64,000 nucleotides of DNA from a plasmid. This document shows, in pieces, positions 3,801 to 56,876 of this stretch. The notes under the pieces are model-generated. The model had not been told where the DNA came from and searched no databases. It saw only the letters and a list, made by a program, of their open reading frames with translations. Where the stretch lies: the NCBI RefSeq assembly GCF_056746865.1, contig NZ_JBWKMP010000004.1, one strand, 5' to 3'. The first letter of the stretch is position 1. Every line of letters begins with the position of its first letter. The translations under genes and the position numbers were made by a program.

Positions 3801-4392
3801 GGGGTCTGACGCTCAGTGGAACGAAAACTCACGTTAAGCAACGTTTTCTGCCTCTGACGCCTCTTTTAATGGTCTCAGATGTCCTTTGGTCACCAGTTCT
3901 GCCAGCGTGAAGGAATAATGGCCGAGCATATTGATATGTCCGTGGCAAAGCGGGGAGAGGCGTGCGATATCTTCATCATTCAGTGTTTCACCCTGCGCCC
4001 GGAGATGATCCAGGGCTGCCTGCATATAAATAGTGTTCCATAACACGACGGCGTTAGTGACCAGCCCCAGTGCGCCCAGTTGATCTTCCTGACCGTCGGT
4101 ATATCGTTTTCTTATCTCACCTTTTTGACCGTGACAGATGGCTCTGGCAACGGCATGGCGACTTTCTCCCCGATTAAGCTGGGTCAGAATGCGCCGGCGG
4201 TAATCTTCATCATCAATATAATTAAGCAGATACAGCGTTTTGTTGATGCGCCCCACTTCAATGATTGCCTGAGTCAGTCCGGAAGGACGTTCACTTTTCA
4301 GCAATGAACGGACCAGCACTGAAGCCTGTACTTTGCCCAGCTTCAGGGAGCCAGCGGTCCGGATCATTTCGTCCCACTGAAGGACTATTTTT
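3801..4392 (-). mobile_element. Tn2/Tn3-type transposon end: 38-bp IR plus 3' end of tnpA, truncated by IS26
   Basis: GGGGTCTGACGCTCAGTGGAACGAAAACTCACGTTAAG at 3801-3838; minus-strand frame encodes TnpA C-terminus ...LAELVTKGHLRPLKEASEAENVA. Confidence 0.8.
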
Positions 4393-5212
4393 GGCACTGT
4401 TGCAAAGTTAGCGATGAGGCAGCCTTTTGTCTTATTCAAAGGCCTTACATTTCAAAAACTCTGCTTACCAGGCGCATTTCGCCCAGGGGATCACCATAAT
4501 AAAATGCTGAGGCCTGGCCTTTGCGTAGTGCACGCATCACCTCAATACCTTTGATGGTGGCGTAAGCCGTCTTCATGGATTTAAATCCCAGCGTGGCGCC
4601 GATTATCCGTTTCAGTTTGCCATGATCGCATTCAATCACGTTGTTCCGGTACTTAATCTGTCGGTGTTCAACGTCAGACGGGCACCGGCCTTCGCGTTTG
4701 AGCAGAGCAAGCGCGCGACCATAGGCGGGCGCTTTATCCGTGTTGATGAATCGCGGGATCTGCCACTTCTTCACGTTGTTGAGGATTTTACCCAGAAACC
4801 GGTATGCAGCTTTGCTGTTACGACGGGAGGAGAGATAAAAATCGACAGTGCGGCCCCGGCTGTCGACGGCCCGGTACAGATACGCCCAGCGGCCATTGAC
4901 CTTCACGTAGGTTTCATCCATGTGCCACGGGCAAAGATCGGAAGGGTTACGCCAGTACCAGCGCAGCCGTTTTTCCATTTCAGGCGCATAACGCTGAACC
5001 CAGCGGTAAATCGTGGAGTGATCGACATTCACTCCGCGTTCAGCCAGCATCTCCTGCAGCTCACGGTAACTGATGCCGTATTTGCAGTACCAGCGTACGG
5101 CCCACAGAATGATGTCACGCTGAAAATGCCGGCCTTTGAATGGGTTCATGTGCAGCTCCATCAGCAAAAGGGGATGATAAGTTTATCACCACCGACTATT
5201 TGCAACAGTGCC
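4393..5212 (-). mobile_element. IS26 (copy 1, 820 bp)
   Basis: 14-bp terminal IRs GGCACTGTTGCAAA at both ends; internal tnp26. Confidence 0.95.
4445..5149 (-). CDS. tnpA: IS26 transposase Tnp26
   Basis: 234-aa [31 protein letters not shown]... Confidence 0.95.
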   Translation of the reverse strand: MNPFKGRHFQRDIILWAVRWYCKYGISYRELQEMLAERGVNVDHSTIYRWVQRYAPEMEKRLRWYWRNPSDLCPWHMDETYVKVNGRWAYLYRAVDSRGRTVDFYLSSRRNSKAAYRFLGKILNNVKKWQIPRFINTDKAPAYGRALALLKREGRCPSDVEHRQIKYRNNVIECDHGKLKRIIGATLGFKSMKTAYATIKGIEVMRALRKGQASAFYYGDPLGEMRLVSRVFEM

Positions 5213-39344: not shown

Positions 39345-39535
39345 TTATAAAACTCCTTATGGTGTTTTTTTGGTGTGTGTTTGGGTATGTTTTGGGTTTT
39401 AAGTGGGTTTGTTTGTCAAGTTTACCCCATTTCAACCATCAATCAATGATTATTTGTCTTGTTTTGGTGTTTTATTGGGTTGGGTATGGGTTGTTTTTGG
39501 GTTTTGTTTGGCGGGTAACAAAAGATGTCGCCGGG
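39345..39535 (-). promoter_or_regulatory. parC: parC centromere/promoter region with short direct repeats
   Basis: GT-rich reiterated motifs (GTTTTGGGTTTT, GGGTTGGGTATGGGTTGTTTTTGGGTTTTG) immediately upstream of parM. Confidence 0.5.
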
Positions 39536-42041: not shown

Positions 42042-42458
42042 TGACGTTGGCGGGGTAAATCCCCGCCTTTTTCCTGCCGGTCCCCGGACAGAGCACAAAG
42101 GAAGTCGCCGCCGGCTCCGCTTTACCCGGCCATGCGGGGCATGGCCTTGTGGGTTTTCAGTTATGTGGCCTCAGCGTCGTGTGCGGGCTGTGCCGTGCCT
42201 CCATCGTAGCCGGGCTGGCAGGGATGCAAGGGTACGCTTCGCCGCTGCGGTCACCCGGTCCCTCCTTCCCGTCTGCCGTGATTTTCCGGTCGTTCACCCG
42301 CTCAGATTTCGCGGTCTCACCCTCCAACTCCCGCCAGCCGTGTGCGTCAGGCTGCGGCTTCCCTTGCGCCCTGTGCATCCCCGCCTTATCGCCCGGCTTT
42401 TATGGAGGCACGGCACCGCCCGGTGTCGCGGAATATGTGAACAACGGAGGAAAACATC

Positions 42459-42884
42459 ATGCAATATGCGAAACCTGTCACTCTGAACGTTGAAGAGTGC
42501 GACCGTCTCTCCTTTCTACCGTATCTGTTTGGCAACGATTTTCTGTATGCCGAGGCGTATGTGTACGCGCTGGCGCAAAAAATGATGCCGGAATATCAGG
42601 GAGGCTTCTGGCACTTCATCCGCCTGCCGGACGGTGGCGGTTACATGATGCCGGATGGCGACCGTTTCCACATGGTGAACGGTGCAAACTGGTTTGACCG
42701 TACCGTGAGTGCTGATGCCGCAGGCATCATTCTGACTTCCCTTGTGATTAACCGCCAGTTGTGGCTGTACCACGACAGCGGGGATGCAGGACTGACCCAG
42801 CTTTACCGGATGCGCGATGCGCAGTTGTGGCGTCACATCGAATTTCACCCCGAATGCAACGCGATTTACGCGGCACTGGACTGA
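42459..42884 (+). CDS. ArdB/KlcA-family antirestriction protein
   Basis: 141-aa [40 protein letters not shown]... size and sequence consistent with KlcA/ArdB family. Confidence 0.7.
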
Positions 42885-43353: not shown

Positions 43354-43879
43354 ATATCAGCACAGAAACCCGCGAAATTCTGCGCAATTACAAAGCCGTG
43401 ATTAATGCGCGGCGTCGTGAAATGGGGCAGAAACCGCTCACCACTGCGCAGATTGTTGATGAAATCTGCGATTTTGTGGCGAATCAGCAGGCTGTATTCC
43501 TCGGCGGTCACTACATCCTTCAGGGCAGCATAAACAGGTGATACAGGGGCAGGCGGTGGAGGCCGCCTGTCAGCCCGCGCGAAAACCCCTGGCAGGCTGA
43601 CGCCTGCCGGAAGGGAAGCGGGCCACGCTGGCGCGTCGCCCGTTACCCTTCCCGTCTGTGATGTGTCTGACTCAGGAGTGTTTCTTTCTTATGTTATGGA
43701 ACTGTTCCTGATGTTGTTGTTCCTTTATCTACTGCTCTGATTCTGACTACTGCAGTGTTGTTCTGTCTGCCGGGCGCACCTTCGGCTCCCGGCTGCCTGG
43801 CGGCATCCGGTCGTCAGGCCCGACTCCGACAGGCAGCTGCTGGCGCACCTGCCAGTCTCCGCCGAACCCGCTGGCGCGG

Positions 43880-44345
43880 TTTCGGGCTGCCGCTACGGTC
43901 CGATGCGTGAAAACCCCTGGCTTGCAGCGACCGTTCCGGTCGCGCCGCCTCTGTCGCGCCGTGGCCTGCGCTCCCGGCATCCCGGCAAAAGGCCGCCGGG
44001 ATGTAAGGGGCAACGCCGTTTCGCGCACGCGCTCTCCGTCGTTGCGGCGGGCCCCTGCTCATTGCCTGCCGGGTGCCACACACCCGTATGAGTCCCTGTC
44101 GCCGGGGGCATAGACAGCCACAACCTGCCGCACTGACTGTCCAGGGTAAATGAACAGCCCACAAAATTTTTTACCCAAAAACCGGTAAAAAATTTTGCGT
44201 TCTGCCCAGGACAGGTGCGTCAGGCCGTGGCAGTGATGCCCCTTGCGGCGAAGGTTCTCAAACGGGTGAAGTTCATACCACAGGGAATACAGCAGCAGGT
44301 TCCCGCGAAACGTCAAAACCGCGGCTCCCGAAACTCAACGGGTGA
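43880..44345 (+). repeat. Frpo/ssi-like leading-region repeat, copy 1 (diverged)
   Basis: ~85-90% identical to copies at 47090-47650 and 52565-53140; GC-rich stem-forming segment followed by conserved promoter-like core. Confidence 0.6.
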
Positions 44346-44578
44346 TGTTCTTTAAAAATCAGGATTTATTTCAGGCTCCGGCAATACGCATTTATTTGTT
44401 CTGTCAGTCATCCGGCTGGCAGGTAATGAGAACGCAGGAACAGAAGGAGGAAAACACCGGAGAACGTCAGACGCAGATATGAAAAAAGCAGGCCGGGGAG
44501 GACCTGCTTAATCCACACCGCAAAAACTGTTCGAGCAGTTTCTGCGGTTCCATTCAACAGTCATAAGGAGTTTCATTT

Positions 44579-44809
44579 ATGACGGTAAGTATTGTTTCAC
44601 CTTCCGCAGCGGCTGTAAAGCCCCGCCGTCATCCCCGTTTCAGACGCGAAGACATCCCCGCGCCGGAAATTGACCCCGTGCTGAAAGCCTTCGGGCGACA
44701 CATTGCCCGGAGTTTTCACCGGGGACGTGGTGTACACATCCCCGCCATGAAAAATACGGCTTTCGGGCAGGTGCTCCGCACACTCGAACTGAAACGCGCT
44801 TTTAACTGA
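44579..44809 (+). CDS. hypothetical protein (76 aa)
   Basis: ORF downstream of repeat copy 1. Confidence 0.4.
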   Translation: MTVSIVSPSAAAVKPRRHPRFRREDIPAPEIDPVLKAFGRHIARSFHRGRGVHIPAMKNTAFGQVLRTLELKRAFN

Positions 44810-44860: not shown

Positions 44861-46222
44861 ATGACATTAGCTGCAATCACCATGACCGCCCCGGAAGCCG
44901 CCAGCCCTGTGCAGATGTACCGCGCGACCTACTCACCGGATGACAACAAACTGCGCCTGTATGCCGCGTCACGTCTTGACCCGGAGACGTATAAAAAAGT
45001 GCATGATGCCGGTTTCCGCTGGGCACCCAGACAGGCGCTGTTTGTCGCGCCAGCCTGGACACCGGGCCGGGAAGACGTGCTCCTCTCACTTGCCGGAGAG
45101 ATTGAGGATGAAGACAGCACGCTCGCTGAACGTCAGGAAGCACGGGCGGAGCGGTTTACCGGATACAGCGGAAAGCGGGCCAGTGAATCCGCACAGGCAC
45201 TTGATGAAGTGGAAAGACTGGCCGCGATGATCCCGCCCGGTCAGCCCATTCTTGTGGGGCATCACAGCGAACGCCGCGCCCGTCGTGATGCGCAGCGTAT
45301 TGAAAACGGCATGAAACGTGCCGTGATGCTCTTTGAACGTGCGGAATACTGGGAAGAACGGGCGCGGTCGGCACTGCTTCACGCGAAGTATAAAGAACGC
45401 CCGGACGTTCGCTGGCGTCGTATCAAAAAAATCGAAGCTGATTTGCGCAAGGCTGAAAAGACCATCGCACAGTCGCAGAAATATCTGACGATGTGGCGGG
45501 CTGAATCGCTGGATCTGAATATGGCAAAACTCATCAGCAGTCATGACCATATCAGCGCCTGTTTCCCGCTGGATACGTATCCGCGCCCGGCAGAAAAAAG
45601 CCAGTATGAAGGGAGCCGGTCGTTATGGTCGGCCCTGGATGATGACATCATCACCACGGAGCAGGCCCGCGAAATTGCGATCCGCTGTCATGAACGGCAG
45701 ATTCAGCATCAGCAACGCTGGGTTAACCACTATCAGAACCGCCTGATCTATGAGCGTGCCATGCTGGACGAAAGCGGCGGCGTGGTTACCCGGACACAGG
45801 ATTTTGAGCCGGGCGGACAGGTTTTCAGCCGGGGCGAGTGGCTGACTATCATCCGCGTGAACAAAAGCAACGGGGCGGTGAGTTCAGTCACAACGCCAAA
45901 TTACAGTTTTCTCGGGTACAGCGGCACGATGAAAGTGACGCCCGATCGCATCACGGACTACAAAGCACCATCGGCAGAAGAGGCTGCCGTCGCCAGTCAG
46001 GCCGCGAAGCGTCCGCCGGTAGTCAACTATCCGGGGGAAGGTTTCCGGGAAATGACAAAGGCGCAGTGGGCCGCCCTGCCCCGGGACTGTAAGGCCGTGC
46101 GCAGTGTGGAAGAAGCAGAAGACCACGGGGCATACCGCTACCGCCGCACAATGGACAATAATTTCCGTCTGGTGAATGTGTATATCACCGACATGAAAAT
46201 CACGGAAATCCCACAGAAATAA
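44861..46222 (+). CDS. hypothetical leading-region protein (453 aa)
   Basis: long ORF with AGGAGA RBS; charged and coiled-coil-like central region. Confidence 0.6.
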   Translation: MTLAAITMTAPEAASPVQMYRATYSPDDNKLRLYAASRLDPETYKKVHDAGFRWAPRQALFVAPAWTPGREDVLLSLAGEIEDEDSTLAERQEARAERFTGYSGKRASESAQALDEVERLAAMIPPGQPILVGHHSERRARRDAQRIENGMKRAVMLFERAEYWEERARSALLHAKYKERPDVRWRRIKKIEADLRKAEKTIAQSQKYLTMWRAESLDLNMAKLISSHDHISACFPLDTYPRPAEKSQYEGSRSLWSALDDDIITTEQAREIAIRCHERQIQHQQRWVNHYQNRLIYERAMLDESGGVVTRTQDFEPGGQVFSRGEWLTIIRVNKSNGAVSSVTTPNYSFLGYSGTMKVTPDRITDYKAPSAEEAAVASQAAKRPPVVNYPGEGFREMTKAQWAALPRDCKAVRSVEEAEDHGAYRYRRTMDNNFRLVNVYITDMKITEIPQK

Positions 46223-46268
46223 GGTATATCCCCCCGGGAAATCCCCGGGGGATGACGGAGATAATGAT

Positions 46269-46832
46269 ATGCACAGTCAGTTAAGAGAACGTATCCGGCT
46301 GATGCGCGCAAGGCTGGATAACGCCGCGCCGGTTGCTGAAATCCGGGCTGAATCTCAGCTTTTTGTGAGTCCTGCCCCGATCTGTGATCGCCTGGTGACG
46401 CTGGCGGAAATCAGCAACCGTGATCACATTCTGGAACCCTCTGCCGGCACCGGGGCCATACTGCGGGCGATTCGGGATACCGCGCCGGAGGCCATGTGTG
46501 ATGCGGTGGAGATTAACAGCGGGCTGGTCCGGTATCTGCGGGAAAATTTTAACGGTGTCAGGGTACAGTGTGGCGACTTCATGGAATGGCAGCCGGTGCA
46601 GTATTACAGCCGGATCATTATGAATCCGCCGTTCAGTCACGGGCAGGATATCCGGCATATCCTGCGGGCTTTTTCCCTGTTGCGTCCGGGGGGCGTTCTG
46701 GTTGCCGTCTGTCTCAACGGGCCACGCCAGCAGGAGAAGCTGTTACCGTTTTCTGACGTCCGCGAGGAGCTGCCGCGCGGCACGTTTGCTTATACCGATG
46801 TCCCGACGATGATTATTCGTTTGCGTGCCTGA
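46269..46832 (+). CDS. class I SAM-dependent methyltransferase (putative DNA MTase)
   Basis: AdoMet motif ILEPSAGTGAI and NPPF motif (IIMNPPFSHG). Confidence 0.6.
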   Translation: MHSQLRERIRLMRARLDNAAPVAEIRAESQLFVSPAPICDRLVTLAEISNRDHILEPSAGTGAILRAIRDTAPEAMCDAVEINSGLVRYLRENFNGVRVQCGDFMEWQPVQYYSRIIMNPPFSHGQDIRHILRAFSLLRPGGVLVAVCLNGPRQQEKLLPFSDVREELPRGTFAYTDVPTMIIRLRA

Positions 46833-47011
46833 TGACACAGGGCTGGCGGGAGGATAAATGCCCGTCTGTCCGCGCCGGGAAAAAACCGCGCGCCGGTGGC
46901 GCTGAAAGGGGCCGCGCTCACGCGCCGCCCCTTTCATTACGCGGACGTTCTGATGGGGGCTTCTGTCTTTTCAGACCTGTCATTTGTCTGTTACTGATGA
47001 TGTTGTTGTTC

Positions 47012-47071
47012 CTGCTACTGCTACTGCTACTGCTACTGCTACTGCTACTGCTACTGCTACTGCTACTGCTA
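47012..47071. repeat. perfect tandem hexanucleotide repeat (CTGCTA)x10
   Basis: read directly; followed by one imperfect unit CTGTTC. Confidence 0.95.
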
Positions 47072-47089
47072 CTGTTCTTCTTTTTTCTA

Positions 47090-47650
47090 CTGCCCTGATT
47101 ATTGTCTGTTTTGTTGTTCTCCTGCTTATGCCTTTTCCGGGCGTCCCCCTGGCGGGGCGGGCTGTCGTGAACGGAGCCAGCGAAGCTGTCTCCGCCCTGG
47201 CGGGCTTCCATCCCTGACGCAAAAACCCGGGTTTGCAGCGACCGGAACGGTCGCGCCACCCTTGTCGCGCCGTGGCCTGCGCTCCCGGCATCCCGGCAAA
47301 AGACGCCGGGATGTAAGGAGCAACGCCGTTTCGCAAACCGCGCTTCACGTCGTTGCGGCGGGTCCCTGCCCGTTGTTCTGTCCGGTGCCATTCACCTGTT
47401 TAAGCCCCTGTCGCCGGGGGCATAGACAGCCACAACCTGCCGCACTGACTGTCCAGGGTAAATGAACAGCCCACAAAATTTTTTACCCAAAACCCGGTAA
47501 AAAATTTTGCGTTCTGCCCAGGACAGGTGCGTCAGGCCGTGGCAGTGATGCCCCTTGCGGCGAAGGTTCTCAAACAGGTGATGGTGAATACCGGAGGGAA
47601 CAAAAGGCAGGTCCCCGCAAAACGTCAAAACCGCGGCTCCCGAAACTCAA
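47090..47650 (+). repeat. Frpo/ssi-like leading-region repeat, copy 2 (upstream of ssb)
   Basis: near-identical to copy 3 over ~560 bp. Confidence 0.7.
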
Positions 47651-47692
47651 CAGATGATGGGGGCTGAAAACATCAACAGAAGGAGACACATC

Positions 47693-48220
47693 ATGGCAGT
47701 TCGTGGCATTAACAAGGTCATTCTTGTCGGTCGTCTGGGAAAAGATCCGGAAGTCCGTTACATCCCCAACGGGGGCGCAGTGGCAAACCTGCAGGTGGCC
47801 ACGTCAGAAACCTGGCGCGACAAACAGACGGGGGAAATGAAGGAGCAGACGGAATGGCACCGCGTGGTGCTGTTCGGCAAGCTCGCGGAAGTGGCAGGTG
47901 AATATCTGCGTAAGGGGGCGCAGGTCTACATTGAAGGCCAGCTTCGCACCCGTAGCTGGGAAGATAACGGTATTACCCGTTACGTCACCGAAATCCTTGT
48001 TAAAACCACGGGCACCATGCAGATGCTGGGGAGTGCACCACAGCAGAACGCTCAGGTGCAACCGCAGCCTCAGCAGAATGGTCAGTCACAGAGTGCTGAC
48101 GCGACGAAAAAAGGGAGCGCGAAAACGAAAGGCCGTGGACGTAAGGCTGCGCAGCCGGAGCCTCAGCCGCAACCACCGGAGGGGGAGGATTACGGGTTTT
48201 CAGACGATATCCCGTTCTGA
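47693..48220 (+). CDS. ssb: plasmid single-stranded DNA-binding protein
   Basis: [48 protein letters not shown]... ; C-terminal acidic tail DDIPF. Confidence 0.9.
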
Positions 48221-52252: not shown

Positions 52253-52564
52253 CAACCTGGAGGCGGGCGCAGGCCCGCCTTTTCAGGGCTGATGCTGGTC
52301 TGACTGCACTGAAGCGCCTTTATAAAGGGGCTGCTGGTTCGCCGGTGGCCCCTTTCTCCTTGCTGGCATTGTACGGGCATGAACAACCAGACTGCCAGGA
52401 AGGCCGTTTCCCTCCGGGAACGGGGATGAACGTGCGCCTGCGGCGCCCGTTCTTTTCCCCCGCCTTCTCTGTTTATGACTTACCAGAAATCACATCACCT
52501 TCCCTTTGATTATTCTCTTTTTCCTCCTGCTCTGACTCTGATTACTGCTCTGACTCTGATTACT

Positions 52565-53140
52565 GCTGCCCTGATTATTGTCTGTTTTGTTGTTCTCCTG
52601 CTTATGCCTTTTCCGGGCGTCCCCCTGGCGGGGCGGGCTGTCGTGAACGGAGCCAGCGAAGCTGTCTCCGCCCTGGCGGGCTTCCATCCCTGACGCAAAA
52701 ACCCGGGTTTGCAGCGACCGGAACGGTCGCGCCACCCTTGTCGCGCCGTGGCCTGCGCTCCCGGCATCCCGGCAAAAGACGCCGGGATGTAAGGAGCAAC
52801 GCCGTTTCGCAAACCGCGCTTCACGTCGTTGCGGCGGGTCCCTGCCCGTTGTTCTGTCCGGTGCCATTCACCTGTTTAAGCCCCTGTCGCCGGGGGCATA
52901 GACAGCCACAACCTGCCGCACTGACTGTCCAGGGTAAATGAACAGCCCACAAAATTTTTTACCCAAAACCCGGTAAAAAATTTTGCGTTCTGCCCAGGAC
53001 AGGTGCGTCAGGCCGTGGCAGTGATGCCCCTTGCGGCGAAGGTTCTCAAACAGGTGATGGTGAATACCGGAGGGAACAAAAGGCAGGTCCCCGCAAAACG
53101 TCAAAACCGCGGCTCCCGAAACTCAACAGATGATGGGGGC
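52565..53140 (+). repeat. Frpo/ssi-like leading-region repeat, copy 3
   Basis: near-identical to 47090-47650. Confidence 0.7.
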
Positions 53141-55239: not shown

Positions 55240-55560
55240 CCCACTCCACAAAAAGGCTCAACAGGTTGGTGGTTCTCACCACCAAAAGCACCACACCCCA
55301 CGCAAAAACAAGTTTTTGCTGATTTGCTTTTTGAATCATTAGCTTATGTTTTAAATAATGTATTTTAATTTATTTTACATTATTAAATAGGGGCGTTGAC
55401 GACCCTATGGCGACCCTATGGCGACCCTTGTTAGGGTCAGTACTGACAAATTTTATGAAAAACATTTGGATATATTAGGGCCGCCCCTAGCAGCGCCGTG
55501 CGTTTTTTTATAGTATGCCCCTAGGGGCGCTGCTAGGGGTGCTCTTCTTTTTTCAGACCA
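55240..55560. promoter_or_regulatory. oriT: oriT region (nic region and TraM/TraY binding repeats)
   Basis: GGTGTGGTGCTTTTGGTGGTGAGAACCACCAACC-like nic region on reverse complement near 55255-55300; direct repeats GACCCTATGGC x2 and palindrome CCCCTAGCAGCGC...GCGCTGCTAGGGG at 55400-55540; upstream of traM. Confidence 0.65.
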
Positions 55561-55999: not shown

Positions 56000-56189
56000 A
56001 TGAAAATGAAGTTTGAGTTGGTTCAAATATAAGAATTTTTATGATTCAAAAAGATGACAATACGTCAGATAATTAGTATATTAATTACGTGGTTAATGCC
56101 ACGTTAAAAATTGAAACTGAAAATCGCCGATGCAGGGAGGTCTGAACTCCCTGCATCGACTGTCCATAGAATCCTTAACGGAGGTTCCT

Positions 56190-56876
56190 ATGTGTGCGCT
56201 GGATCGTAGAGAAAGGCCACTTAACAGTCAATCTGTAAATAAGTACATCCTTAACGTTCAGAATATCTACAGAAATTCTCCCGTTCCGGTTTGTGTCCGT
56301 AACAAAAACCGGAAAATCCTTTATGCCAATGGGGCTTTTATTGAACTCTTTTCCAGAGAAGATAAACCCTTATCCGGAGAGAGTTATATACGTCTGCAGG
56401 TTGAAATTTTTCTTTCATCACTTGAACTGGAATGCCAGGCTCTTGGACATGGCTCTGCATTTTGTCGTCGTTTTAATTTTCATGGCGAAATCTATCAGAT
56501 AAGGATGGAGAATGTTTCTTTTTATAATGACGAATCTGTTGTTTTATGGCAAATTAATCCGTTTCCTGATTATCCATTTTTTGCGTTAAGTCAGAGTGGA
56601 AGTAATACAAATACTTCTGATAAATTAACGATATGGAATGATCTTTCCCCCGGGACATTGCTTGTTTTCTCTTTTTATATGCTGGGTGTTGGTCATGCAA
56701 CAATTGCCAGAGAATTGGGTATTACAGACAGAGCATCTGAGGATCGAATTAAACCAGTTAAACGGAAAATAAAAGAATTTTTTGAACACTTTGATTTATT
56801 CAGAGTGTCATGTATCTATAAAGGGAAAATAGATTTGCTATTAAATATAATTCGTGAATTTTATAGCGTTAAGTAA
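56190..56876 (+). CDS. traJ: transfer activator TraJ
   Basis: track ORF 56130-56876; probable start at MCALDRR (56190); position between traM and traY. Confidence 0.75.

Follow-up and report, generated by a model that had tools for sequence, protein, structure and literature searches.

A hypervariable hexanucleotide repeat upstream of ssb in an R100/IncFII-type plasmid, at the position of the Salmonella typing locus STTR10pl

We examined a perfect array of ten CTGCTA units in the leading region of a plasmid, within a stretch of 64 kb that was analysed at its full length and is referred to here as the window. With a probability of roughly 0.8, we regard the array as a non-coding, hypervariable hexanucleotide VNTR that arises by slipped-strand mispairing in a low-complexity spacer and is near-neutral; it probably has no function of its own. 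Judged by position and alignment, it is the counterpart in the R100/IncFII lineage of STTR10pl on plasmid pSLT, and a distinct locus with another repeat unit. The position of the array is thus already known as a variable repeat site.

The region around the array is near-identical to R100 and to many IncFII-type plasmids of E. coli, Klebsiella, Salmonella and Shigella, and by this resemblance the window belongs to an R100/IncFII-type resistance plasmid. The sequence GTGTGGTGCTTTTG, the F-type oriT nick-region core of F and R100, has a single exact match, on the minus strand at 55283-55296, and a scan of 42-57 kb against Rfam placed the traJ 5′UTR/FinP at 56087-56196. The transferred strand is therefore the minus strand and the leading region spans 42-55 kb, with its genes on the plus strand. 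The features on which the following account depends are listed here, each with its basis.

43702-43775, plus strand: pyrimidine-rich tract 5′ of Frpo-like copy 1, without an expanded array (repeat family D3, alignment)
46269-46832, plus strand: class I SAM-dependent methyltransferase gene, ydcA-like, upstream of the array (annotation of relatives, domain match)
46905-46938, plus strand: G+C-rich hairpin followed by TTTCATT, just past the methyltransferase stop codon (sequence, predicted fold, alignment)
46960-47125, plus strand: T-rich, pyrimidine-rich low-complexity spacer that contains the array (72% pyrimidine, 46% T)
47012-47074, plus strand: perfect hexanucleotide array, (CTGCTA)x10 plus CTG (raw sequence, Tandem Repeats Finder, regex scan)
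47048-47660, plus strand: Frpo-type (class 1 single-stranded DNA promoter) repeat, copy 2 (repeat families D1, D2 and D4-D7, alignment, minus-strand fold)
47693-48220, plus strand: plasmid ssb, the first gene downstream of the array (ORF list, annotation of relatives)
52475-52605, plus strand: pyrimidine-rich spacer 5′ of Frpo-like copy 3 (Tandem Repeats Finder, alignment, composition)
55283-55296, minus strand: F-type oriT nick-region core GTGTGGTGCTTTTG, exact (pattern match)

Read along the plus strand, the methyltransferase stop codon is followed by the G+C-rich hairpin, then by the pyrimidine-rich stretch with the array, and then by an Frpo-type element of ~610 nt. We infer that the hairpin at 46905-46938 is the terminator of the upstream operon; it was not among the calls of a scan for consensus terminators, and equivalent hairpins stand ahead of the pyrimidine-rich tracts of copies 1 and 3 too. 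The Frpo-type element recurs at 52524-53135 and, from 47221 onward, also at 43910-44347. On the minus strand it is predicted to form very stable stem-loops (-215 kcal/mol, z = -11.6). Copy 2 ends ~30 nt ahead of the start codon of ssb, and a ParB-like gene lies downstream within the same operon. The class 1 single-stranded DNA promoters, or Frpo/ssi promoters, were reportedly treated by Masai and Arai in 1997, and they include Frpo1 and Frpo2 of F and ssi1-3 of ColIb-P9. On sequence and location, the copy 2 element corresponds to Frpo2, the name given to the ssb-proximal single-strand promoter of F (PMC9849209).

Several further features were recorded in the same scans. A perfect (CGACCCTATGG)x2.6 repeat at 55400-55428, inside the oriT region and ~100 nt from the nick-region match, is possibly a relaxosome protein binding site. 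Two degenerate 11-nt T-rich arrays (GTTTTTTTGG / TTGTTTTTGGG; 3.5 and 4.9 copies, 67% matches) occur at 39364-39400 and 39459-39511. The Rfam family AS-pc01 (‘Antisense to pHK01_035’) matches the minus strand at 44483-44584 with 89.7 bits, against a gathering cut-off of 79, and this match overlaps the start of a small ORF (44579-44809) downstream of Frpo-like copy 1. Over 42-57 kb, Rfam returned nothing at the array itself; its matches, to the traJ 5′UTR, FinP, sok and AS-pc01, all lie elsewhere.

The preliminary description of this DNA had reported ten perfect CTGCTA units followed by an imperfect eleventh. This is what the raw sequence contains, with the units at 47012-47071 followed by CTG and TTC, and Tandem Repeats Finder agrees (47012-47074, period 6, 10.5 copies, 100% matches, score 126, unit CTGCTA). 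On the transferred strand the array reads (TAGCAG)n. A regex scan of the whole 64 kb found no second perfect hexamer array of at least 3 units, and we reason that a 63-nt perfect run of period 6 is effectively impossible by chance. The end of the array is separated by 618 nt from the ssb ATG at 47693, in an intergenic gap between the methyltransferase gene and ssb that is unannotated in R100 and relatives too. The array adjoins the 5′ side of the repeated Frpo-like module, with the homology between copies 2 and 3 beginning at 47048. Its reported placement just 5′ of an Frpo-type element ahead of ssb is borne out by the repeat families, a three-way alignment of the copies and the minus-strand fold, and the three-way alignment and repeat family D3 likewise agree with the different, shorter pyrimidine-rich tracts that had been described at ~43700-43760 and ~52525-52580.

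Repeat number is not identical among related plasmids. Direct counts in complete plasmids gave 9 units in R100, 10 in pMyJU734, 9 in pGZM7d, 17 in pZ1323PEC0011-2 and 8 in pKp_Goe_795-3, and additional counts gave 4 in pCO_Eco4457-3, 5 in an ETEC plasmid and ~6 in pTA134. A 301-nt query around the array matched 4,579 of 72,556 plasmid records, and the BLAST match spans ranged from 246 to 343 nt, mostly in 6-nt steps; a more distant BLAST search, among the at least 5,000 matches listed, returned IncF plasmids and nothing further on the array. Metagenome contigs were scanned by exact match to the left flank plus one unit, which yielded 117 stretches, a sample in which at least one unit is demanded by the query and long arrays may be under-represented by short-read assembly. 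The metagenome stretches and the fetched plasmids that share the left flank and have a readable right flank make up 120 instances, with n = 1-17, 14 alleles, a mode of 4-5 and a Simpson diversity of ~0.89-0.90 (hand calculation). The 10 units of the window fall in the upper tail of this distribution, alleles of 1-2 units account for 24 of the 120, and nearly all arrays are uninterrupted and share a common CTG(T/C)TC end boundary.

The sharpest comparisons are those in which the flanks do not differ. Among seven sequences that are identical for 300 nt to either side of the array, the unit numbers are 7, 8, 9, 9, 10, 10 and 17, and in a second identical-flank group they are 4, 5, 6 and 8. Between pBSI047-KPC2 (10 units) and pBSI014-KPC2 (9 units), 41,091 flanking bases align without a mismatch. 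The array therefore alters much faster than point substitutions build up. The proposal that this is a length-variable locus, made at first by comparison of the copies within one molecule, is thus upheld between molecules, with 1-17 units in related plasmids and 41 kb of identical flank beside a changed unit number. A short unit repeated head to tail, with whole-unit copy differences on identical flanks, places the array among VNTRs, or microsatellites.

Rearrangements were also observed around the array. Many plasmids diverge exactly at its right end, where BLAST matches stop at query positions 135, 141, 147, ... 171, and the right flank of pGZM7d (2613-2730) resembles copy 1 of the window (43730-43790); the sequences suggest recombination or gene conversion between Frpo paralogues, with the breakpoint at the array or close to it. 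In one metagenome contig the left flank and array occur twice (at 786 and 10196, ~9.4 kb apart); the two arrays have 4 and 2 units and their right flanks differ, so some plasmids have two (CTGCTA)n loci. In both KPC-2 plasmids, the leading region also contains ltrA, a group II intron reverse transcriptase/maturase gene, at 14913-16580, between a small hypothetical gene following the DUF1380 gene and the first Frpo-like copy.

STTR10pl, which belongs to the five-locus MLVA scheme for Salmonella Typhimurium and went unrecognised in the preliminary description, has been placed between PSLT064 and ssbB on pSLT (PMC6459517). In a 2-kb scan of pSLT upstream of and into ssbB, the only tandem repeat was (CCTGTT)x10.2, which ends 630 nt upstream of the ssbB ATG and just 5′ of an Frpo-like sequence. 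The STTR10pl primer sequences map exactly either side of this (CCTGTT)n. Searched against the window with up to 3 mismatches, they gave no match, so the standard MLVA assay would miss the window locus. Plasmid F carries an imperfect (TTCCTCTTC)x5 at the equivalent spacer, in a tract that is 18 nt shorter in pDEC5E-3. In a five-way alignment, the R100-type (CTGCTA)n, the pSLT (CCTGTT)n and the F (TTCCTCTTC)x5 share columns, and all three arrays lie directly 5′ of a conserved block (...CCGGGCG, ...GAGCCAGC, ...TTCCATCCC, ...CGACCG). At the equivalent place, IncI1 R64 has a short T-rich stretch only.

Like the window array, STTR10pl is a perfect, pyrimidine-rich, intergenic hexanucleotide repeat of ~10 units that is hypervariable by whole units, and it ends ~620-630 nt upstream of a plasmid ssb, directly 5′ of an Frpo-like module and in the same alignment columns. 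The two loci differ in their unit (CCTGTT versus CTGCTA), in the gene to their left (PSLT064 versus the ydcA-like methyltransferase) and in their primer sites. The (TTCCTCTTC)n or (TTCTTC)n tract of F also shares with the window array its place in the spacer upstream of Frpo2/ssb, its strand bias and its variable length, whereas its unit is of 9 nt (or 6 nt), imperfect at 80-86% matches and without any purines. The 9-bp variable repeat in traD of pSLT is likewise a length-variable repeat of an F-like plasmid that serves lineage tracking (PMC6459517), but it is coding, in contrast to the intergenic window array. STTR10 is one of three rapidly evolving MLVA loci, with a median of 11 repeats and 24 alleles among 1,420 isolates, and it shifts by 1-7 repeats during in vitro passage (PMC5183578, PMC3877154). 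These passage experiments show that repeat number also shifts without deliberate mating. Our literature searches found no paper naming both STTR10 and Frpo; a search for hexanucleotide repeats or VNTRs in IncF leading regions found nothing on R100-type plasmids and pointed to STTR10pl instead, and one on the repeat sequence itself gave unrelated matches only (eukaryotic, primer sequences).

The spacer in which the array sits has a pronounced strand bias. The 100-nt interval 47039-47138 is the joint most pyrimidine-rich of the whole 64 kb (76%; mean 50%, sd 6%), the spacers of copies 2 and 3 being the two most pyrimidine-rich such intervals and that of copy 1 ranking seventh. On the transferred strand, the spacer at 46960-47125 is correspondingly purine-rich, and it is predicted to be mostly unpaired. 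The layout of hairpin, pyrimidine-rich tract and Frpo module is common to 3/3 copies, while the expanded perfect array is found only in copy 2. Strand-specific pyrimidine richness is kept at all Frpo copies in the window and in F, where the tract is 87% pyrimidine and is the most extreme 100-nt interval in the 15-kb leading-region stretch examined. This conservation may mean that the spacer as a whole is functional.

The spacer of copy 3 contains an 18-nt unit, (CTGCTCTGACTCTGATTA)x2.3, at 52527-52567, which is present once or twice in related sequences. Among fetched relatives, the anchor-to-anchor stretch at this spacer measures 32 nt in 14 cases and 50 nt in 10, so a second length polymorphism, with two alleles, exists at the corresponding place of another Frpo copy. 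Other plus-strand intervals rich in pyrimidine (71%) were seen at 42233-42332 in the window, at 4530-4629 in F and at 4253-4352 and 11202-11301 in R64. Intervals of this kind sit just upstream of antirestriction genes, a klcA/ardB-like gene (42459-42884) in the window and ardA in R64. Antirestriction operons are said to have class 2 single-strand promoters (PMC12672017), and strand-biased spacers may be general ahead of leading-region operons.

The most substantial alternative to a near-neutral repeat is that the array is a tunable cis-element, in which spacer length adjusts early (zygotic) expression of ssb-psiB or complementary-strand priming and alleles are selected. Its position directly 5′ of the Frpo module would suit such a role, as would the retention of a pyrimidine-rich spacer ahead of every Frpo copy in the window and in F. 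In surveillance data, moreover, STTR10 alleles are biased to the mid-range, which could reflect selection, and the authors speculated on transcription-factor binding (PMC5183578). The predicted structure of the transferred strand speaks against this alternative. In the minus-strand fold, the array and its surroundings are essentially unpaired and lie between the Frpo hairpins and the terminator-like hairpin, with a mean predicted pairing probability of ~0.3 for the array versus 0.71 for the promoter-side region. When the sequence was refolded with n = 0 to 25, 229/229 promoter-side base pairs were unchanged and ~0.4 kcal/mol was added per unit. The array adjoins a class 1 promoter, and its spacer accompanies all three copies of the window, yet it lies outside the stem-loop in which the -35 and -10 boxes are re-formed; we rejected it as a part of that stem-loop on its low pairing and on the constancy of the fold. 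The boxes and a transcription start were sought by eye in the Frpo hairpin and none was convincingly placed, and because of this our distances are measured to the ssb ATG only. No sigma-70-like promoter was predicted in 46200-47800. In addition, the array is ~600 nt from the ssb start, natural alleles of 1-17 units occur within otherwise identical flanking sequence, different lineages have entirely different units, and deletion of the whole of Frpo2 left the conjugation frequency of F unchanged (PMC9849209). We consider a tuning role unlikely, and on the folding predictions the suggestion in the preliminary description that repeat number could alter expression is not favoured. A wider version, in which the strand-biased unstructured spacer is a functional part of Frpo-type promoters and the arrays of R100-type plasmids, pSLT and F are selected length-tuning devices, appears to us about as doubtful. 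Under it, the spacer could serve as an insulator against mispairing between the promoter hairpin and the upstream terminator, in transcript release on a single-stranded template, or as a loading zone.

A comparable slippage in perfect short tandem repeats underlies the phase-variable contingency loci of Haemophilus, Neisseria and Campylobacter, whose repeats shift the reading frame or alter -35/-10 spacing. Unlike these, the window array has a unit that is a multiple of 3 (6 nt), has no supported ORF and is hundreds of bases away from every promoter element, mapped or predicted, with no promoter-like site at 46200-47800 and the array outside the promoter stem-loop, and we rejected this class for it. 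DnaG primase CTG sites were also rejected, by reasoning alone, since CTG is on the non-transferred strand and the transferred strand reads TAGCAG. A Rho-binding (rut) site would be speculation; the F tract looks like one, and CUGCUA adds no YC dimers.

Coding of a small hydrophobic peptide was weighed by tracking six frames in 74 related sequences. The array is open in three plus-strand and two minus-strand frames, one of which is a (Leu-Leu)n frame (46832-47098) and another an (Ala-Thr)n frame followed by a membrane-like stretch (46984-47217), and a hexamer would preserve the frame. The Leu frame generally opens with an ATG that overlaps the stop codon of the methyltransferase gene, and it ends 24 nt past the array; hydrophobic frames are, in our reading, present in F and pSLT too; and in pGZM7d PGAP calls two overlapping hypothetical proteins over the array (WP_249960395.1 and WP_254539453.1; 2433-2693 and 2585-2863). 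These calls are inconsistent between records, being listed in pGZM7d and absent from R100 and most others, which leave the region unannotated. Neither a Shine-Dalgarno sequence nor a promoter was found for these frames, start positions vary across relatives, and the terminator-like hairpin falls inside the Leu-frame ORF. The paralogous copies break the frame by in-frame TGA codons and by 20-nt and 7-nt indels, and plasmids with a right flank of the copy 1 type have an entirely different C-terminus. Variation by 32 residues within a hydrophobic stretch is also hard to square with a folded function, and against Pfam and NCBIfam the ORFs gave sub-threshold low-complexity matches only, none at cut-off. 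We rejected coding on these grounds and consider the ORFs across the array spurious, a peptide gene being very improbable. Remoter still is the idea that the repeated hexamers are bound by a plasmid or host protein and make up a putative centromere-like or iteron array. Short direct-repeat arrays are protein-binding sites in some plasmid partition systems and a ParB-like gene follows in the ssb operon, but alleles of 1-2 units are common (24/120), the unit is wholly different at the equivalent position of pSLT and F, and the CTGCTA array lacks inverted symmetry. That the length variation is an artefact of sequencing or assembly can be dismissed almost entirely. Repeats do invite assembly errors, and many metagenome contigs break near the array region; nevertheless, finished plasmids sequenced in many laboratories with many technologies, the classical R100 sequence among them, differ by exact multiples of 6, the arrays of 6-102 nt are below typical read length, and PCR sizing of the equivalent locus on pSLT is part of routine surveillance (PMC3877154, PMC5183578).

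We therefore return to slipped-strand mispairing in a near-neutral spacer as the preferred reading. The low-complexity, pyrimidine-rich spacer would seed a perfect microsatellite, and slippage would both build the array and keep it variable, with gains and losses of entire 6-nt units outpacing point substitutions by far. Alleles with n = 1 retain CTGCTACTG, which would be enough to seed a duplication. Different proto-repeats would have expanded independently in each lineage within one spacer, giving (CTGCTA)n in R100-type plasmids, (CCTGTT)n in pSLT and (TTCCTCTTC)n in F. The rate could be raised by the exposure of the spacer as single-stranded DNA at every transfer, and possibly also by the copying of the spacer immediately before the polymerase meets very stable hairpins; a preprint describes another stem-loop of the F leading region that stalls complementary-strand synthesis (10.64898/2026.01.09.698686). 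Counting against neutrality, the array units at the spacer are all multiples of three (6, 6, 9 and 18 nt) with T at every third base, a triplet pattern of the kind that coding constraint would give, and one frame is always rich in Leu/Phe. We tentatively attribute the multiples of three to descent from a triplet-periodic low-complexity sequence.

For epidemic IncFII plasmids, the array could serve as a fine-scale marker. Many resistance genes of clinical importance are found on R100/IncFII-type backbones, and the closest matches to the window include KPC-2 plasmids of Klebsiella pneumoniae. Use of the array as a typing marker, as had been proposed, is plausible, given its variability across relatives and the direct precedent of STTR10pl at the same position (PMC6459517, PMC5183578). 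A repeat that differs while 41 kb of flank is identical could split very recent plasmid transmissions beyond the resolution of point differences, as STTR10pl does for Salmonella, with the caveat of heavy homoplasy, the same allele occurring on different flank types. The locus is also a warning for annotation, since gene callers place spurious hypothetical proteins over the array in some records.

These observations connect a locus long used in typing with the architecture of single-strand promoters. As a small conceptual point, Frpo-type promoters carry a conserved strand-biased spacer that repeatedly spawns microsatellites. Should that spacer prove to be a functional part of these promoters, STTR10pl, a locus typed routinely in Salmonella, would report on a regulatory element of plasmid establishment.
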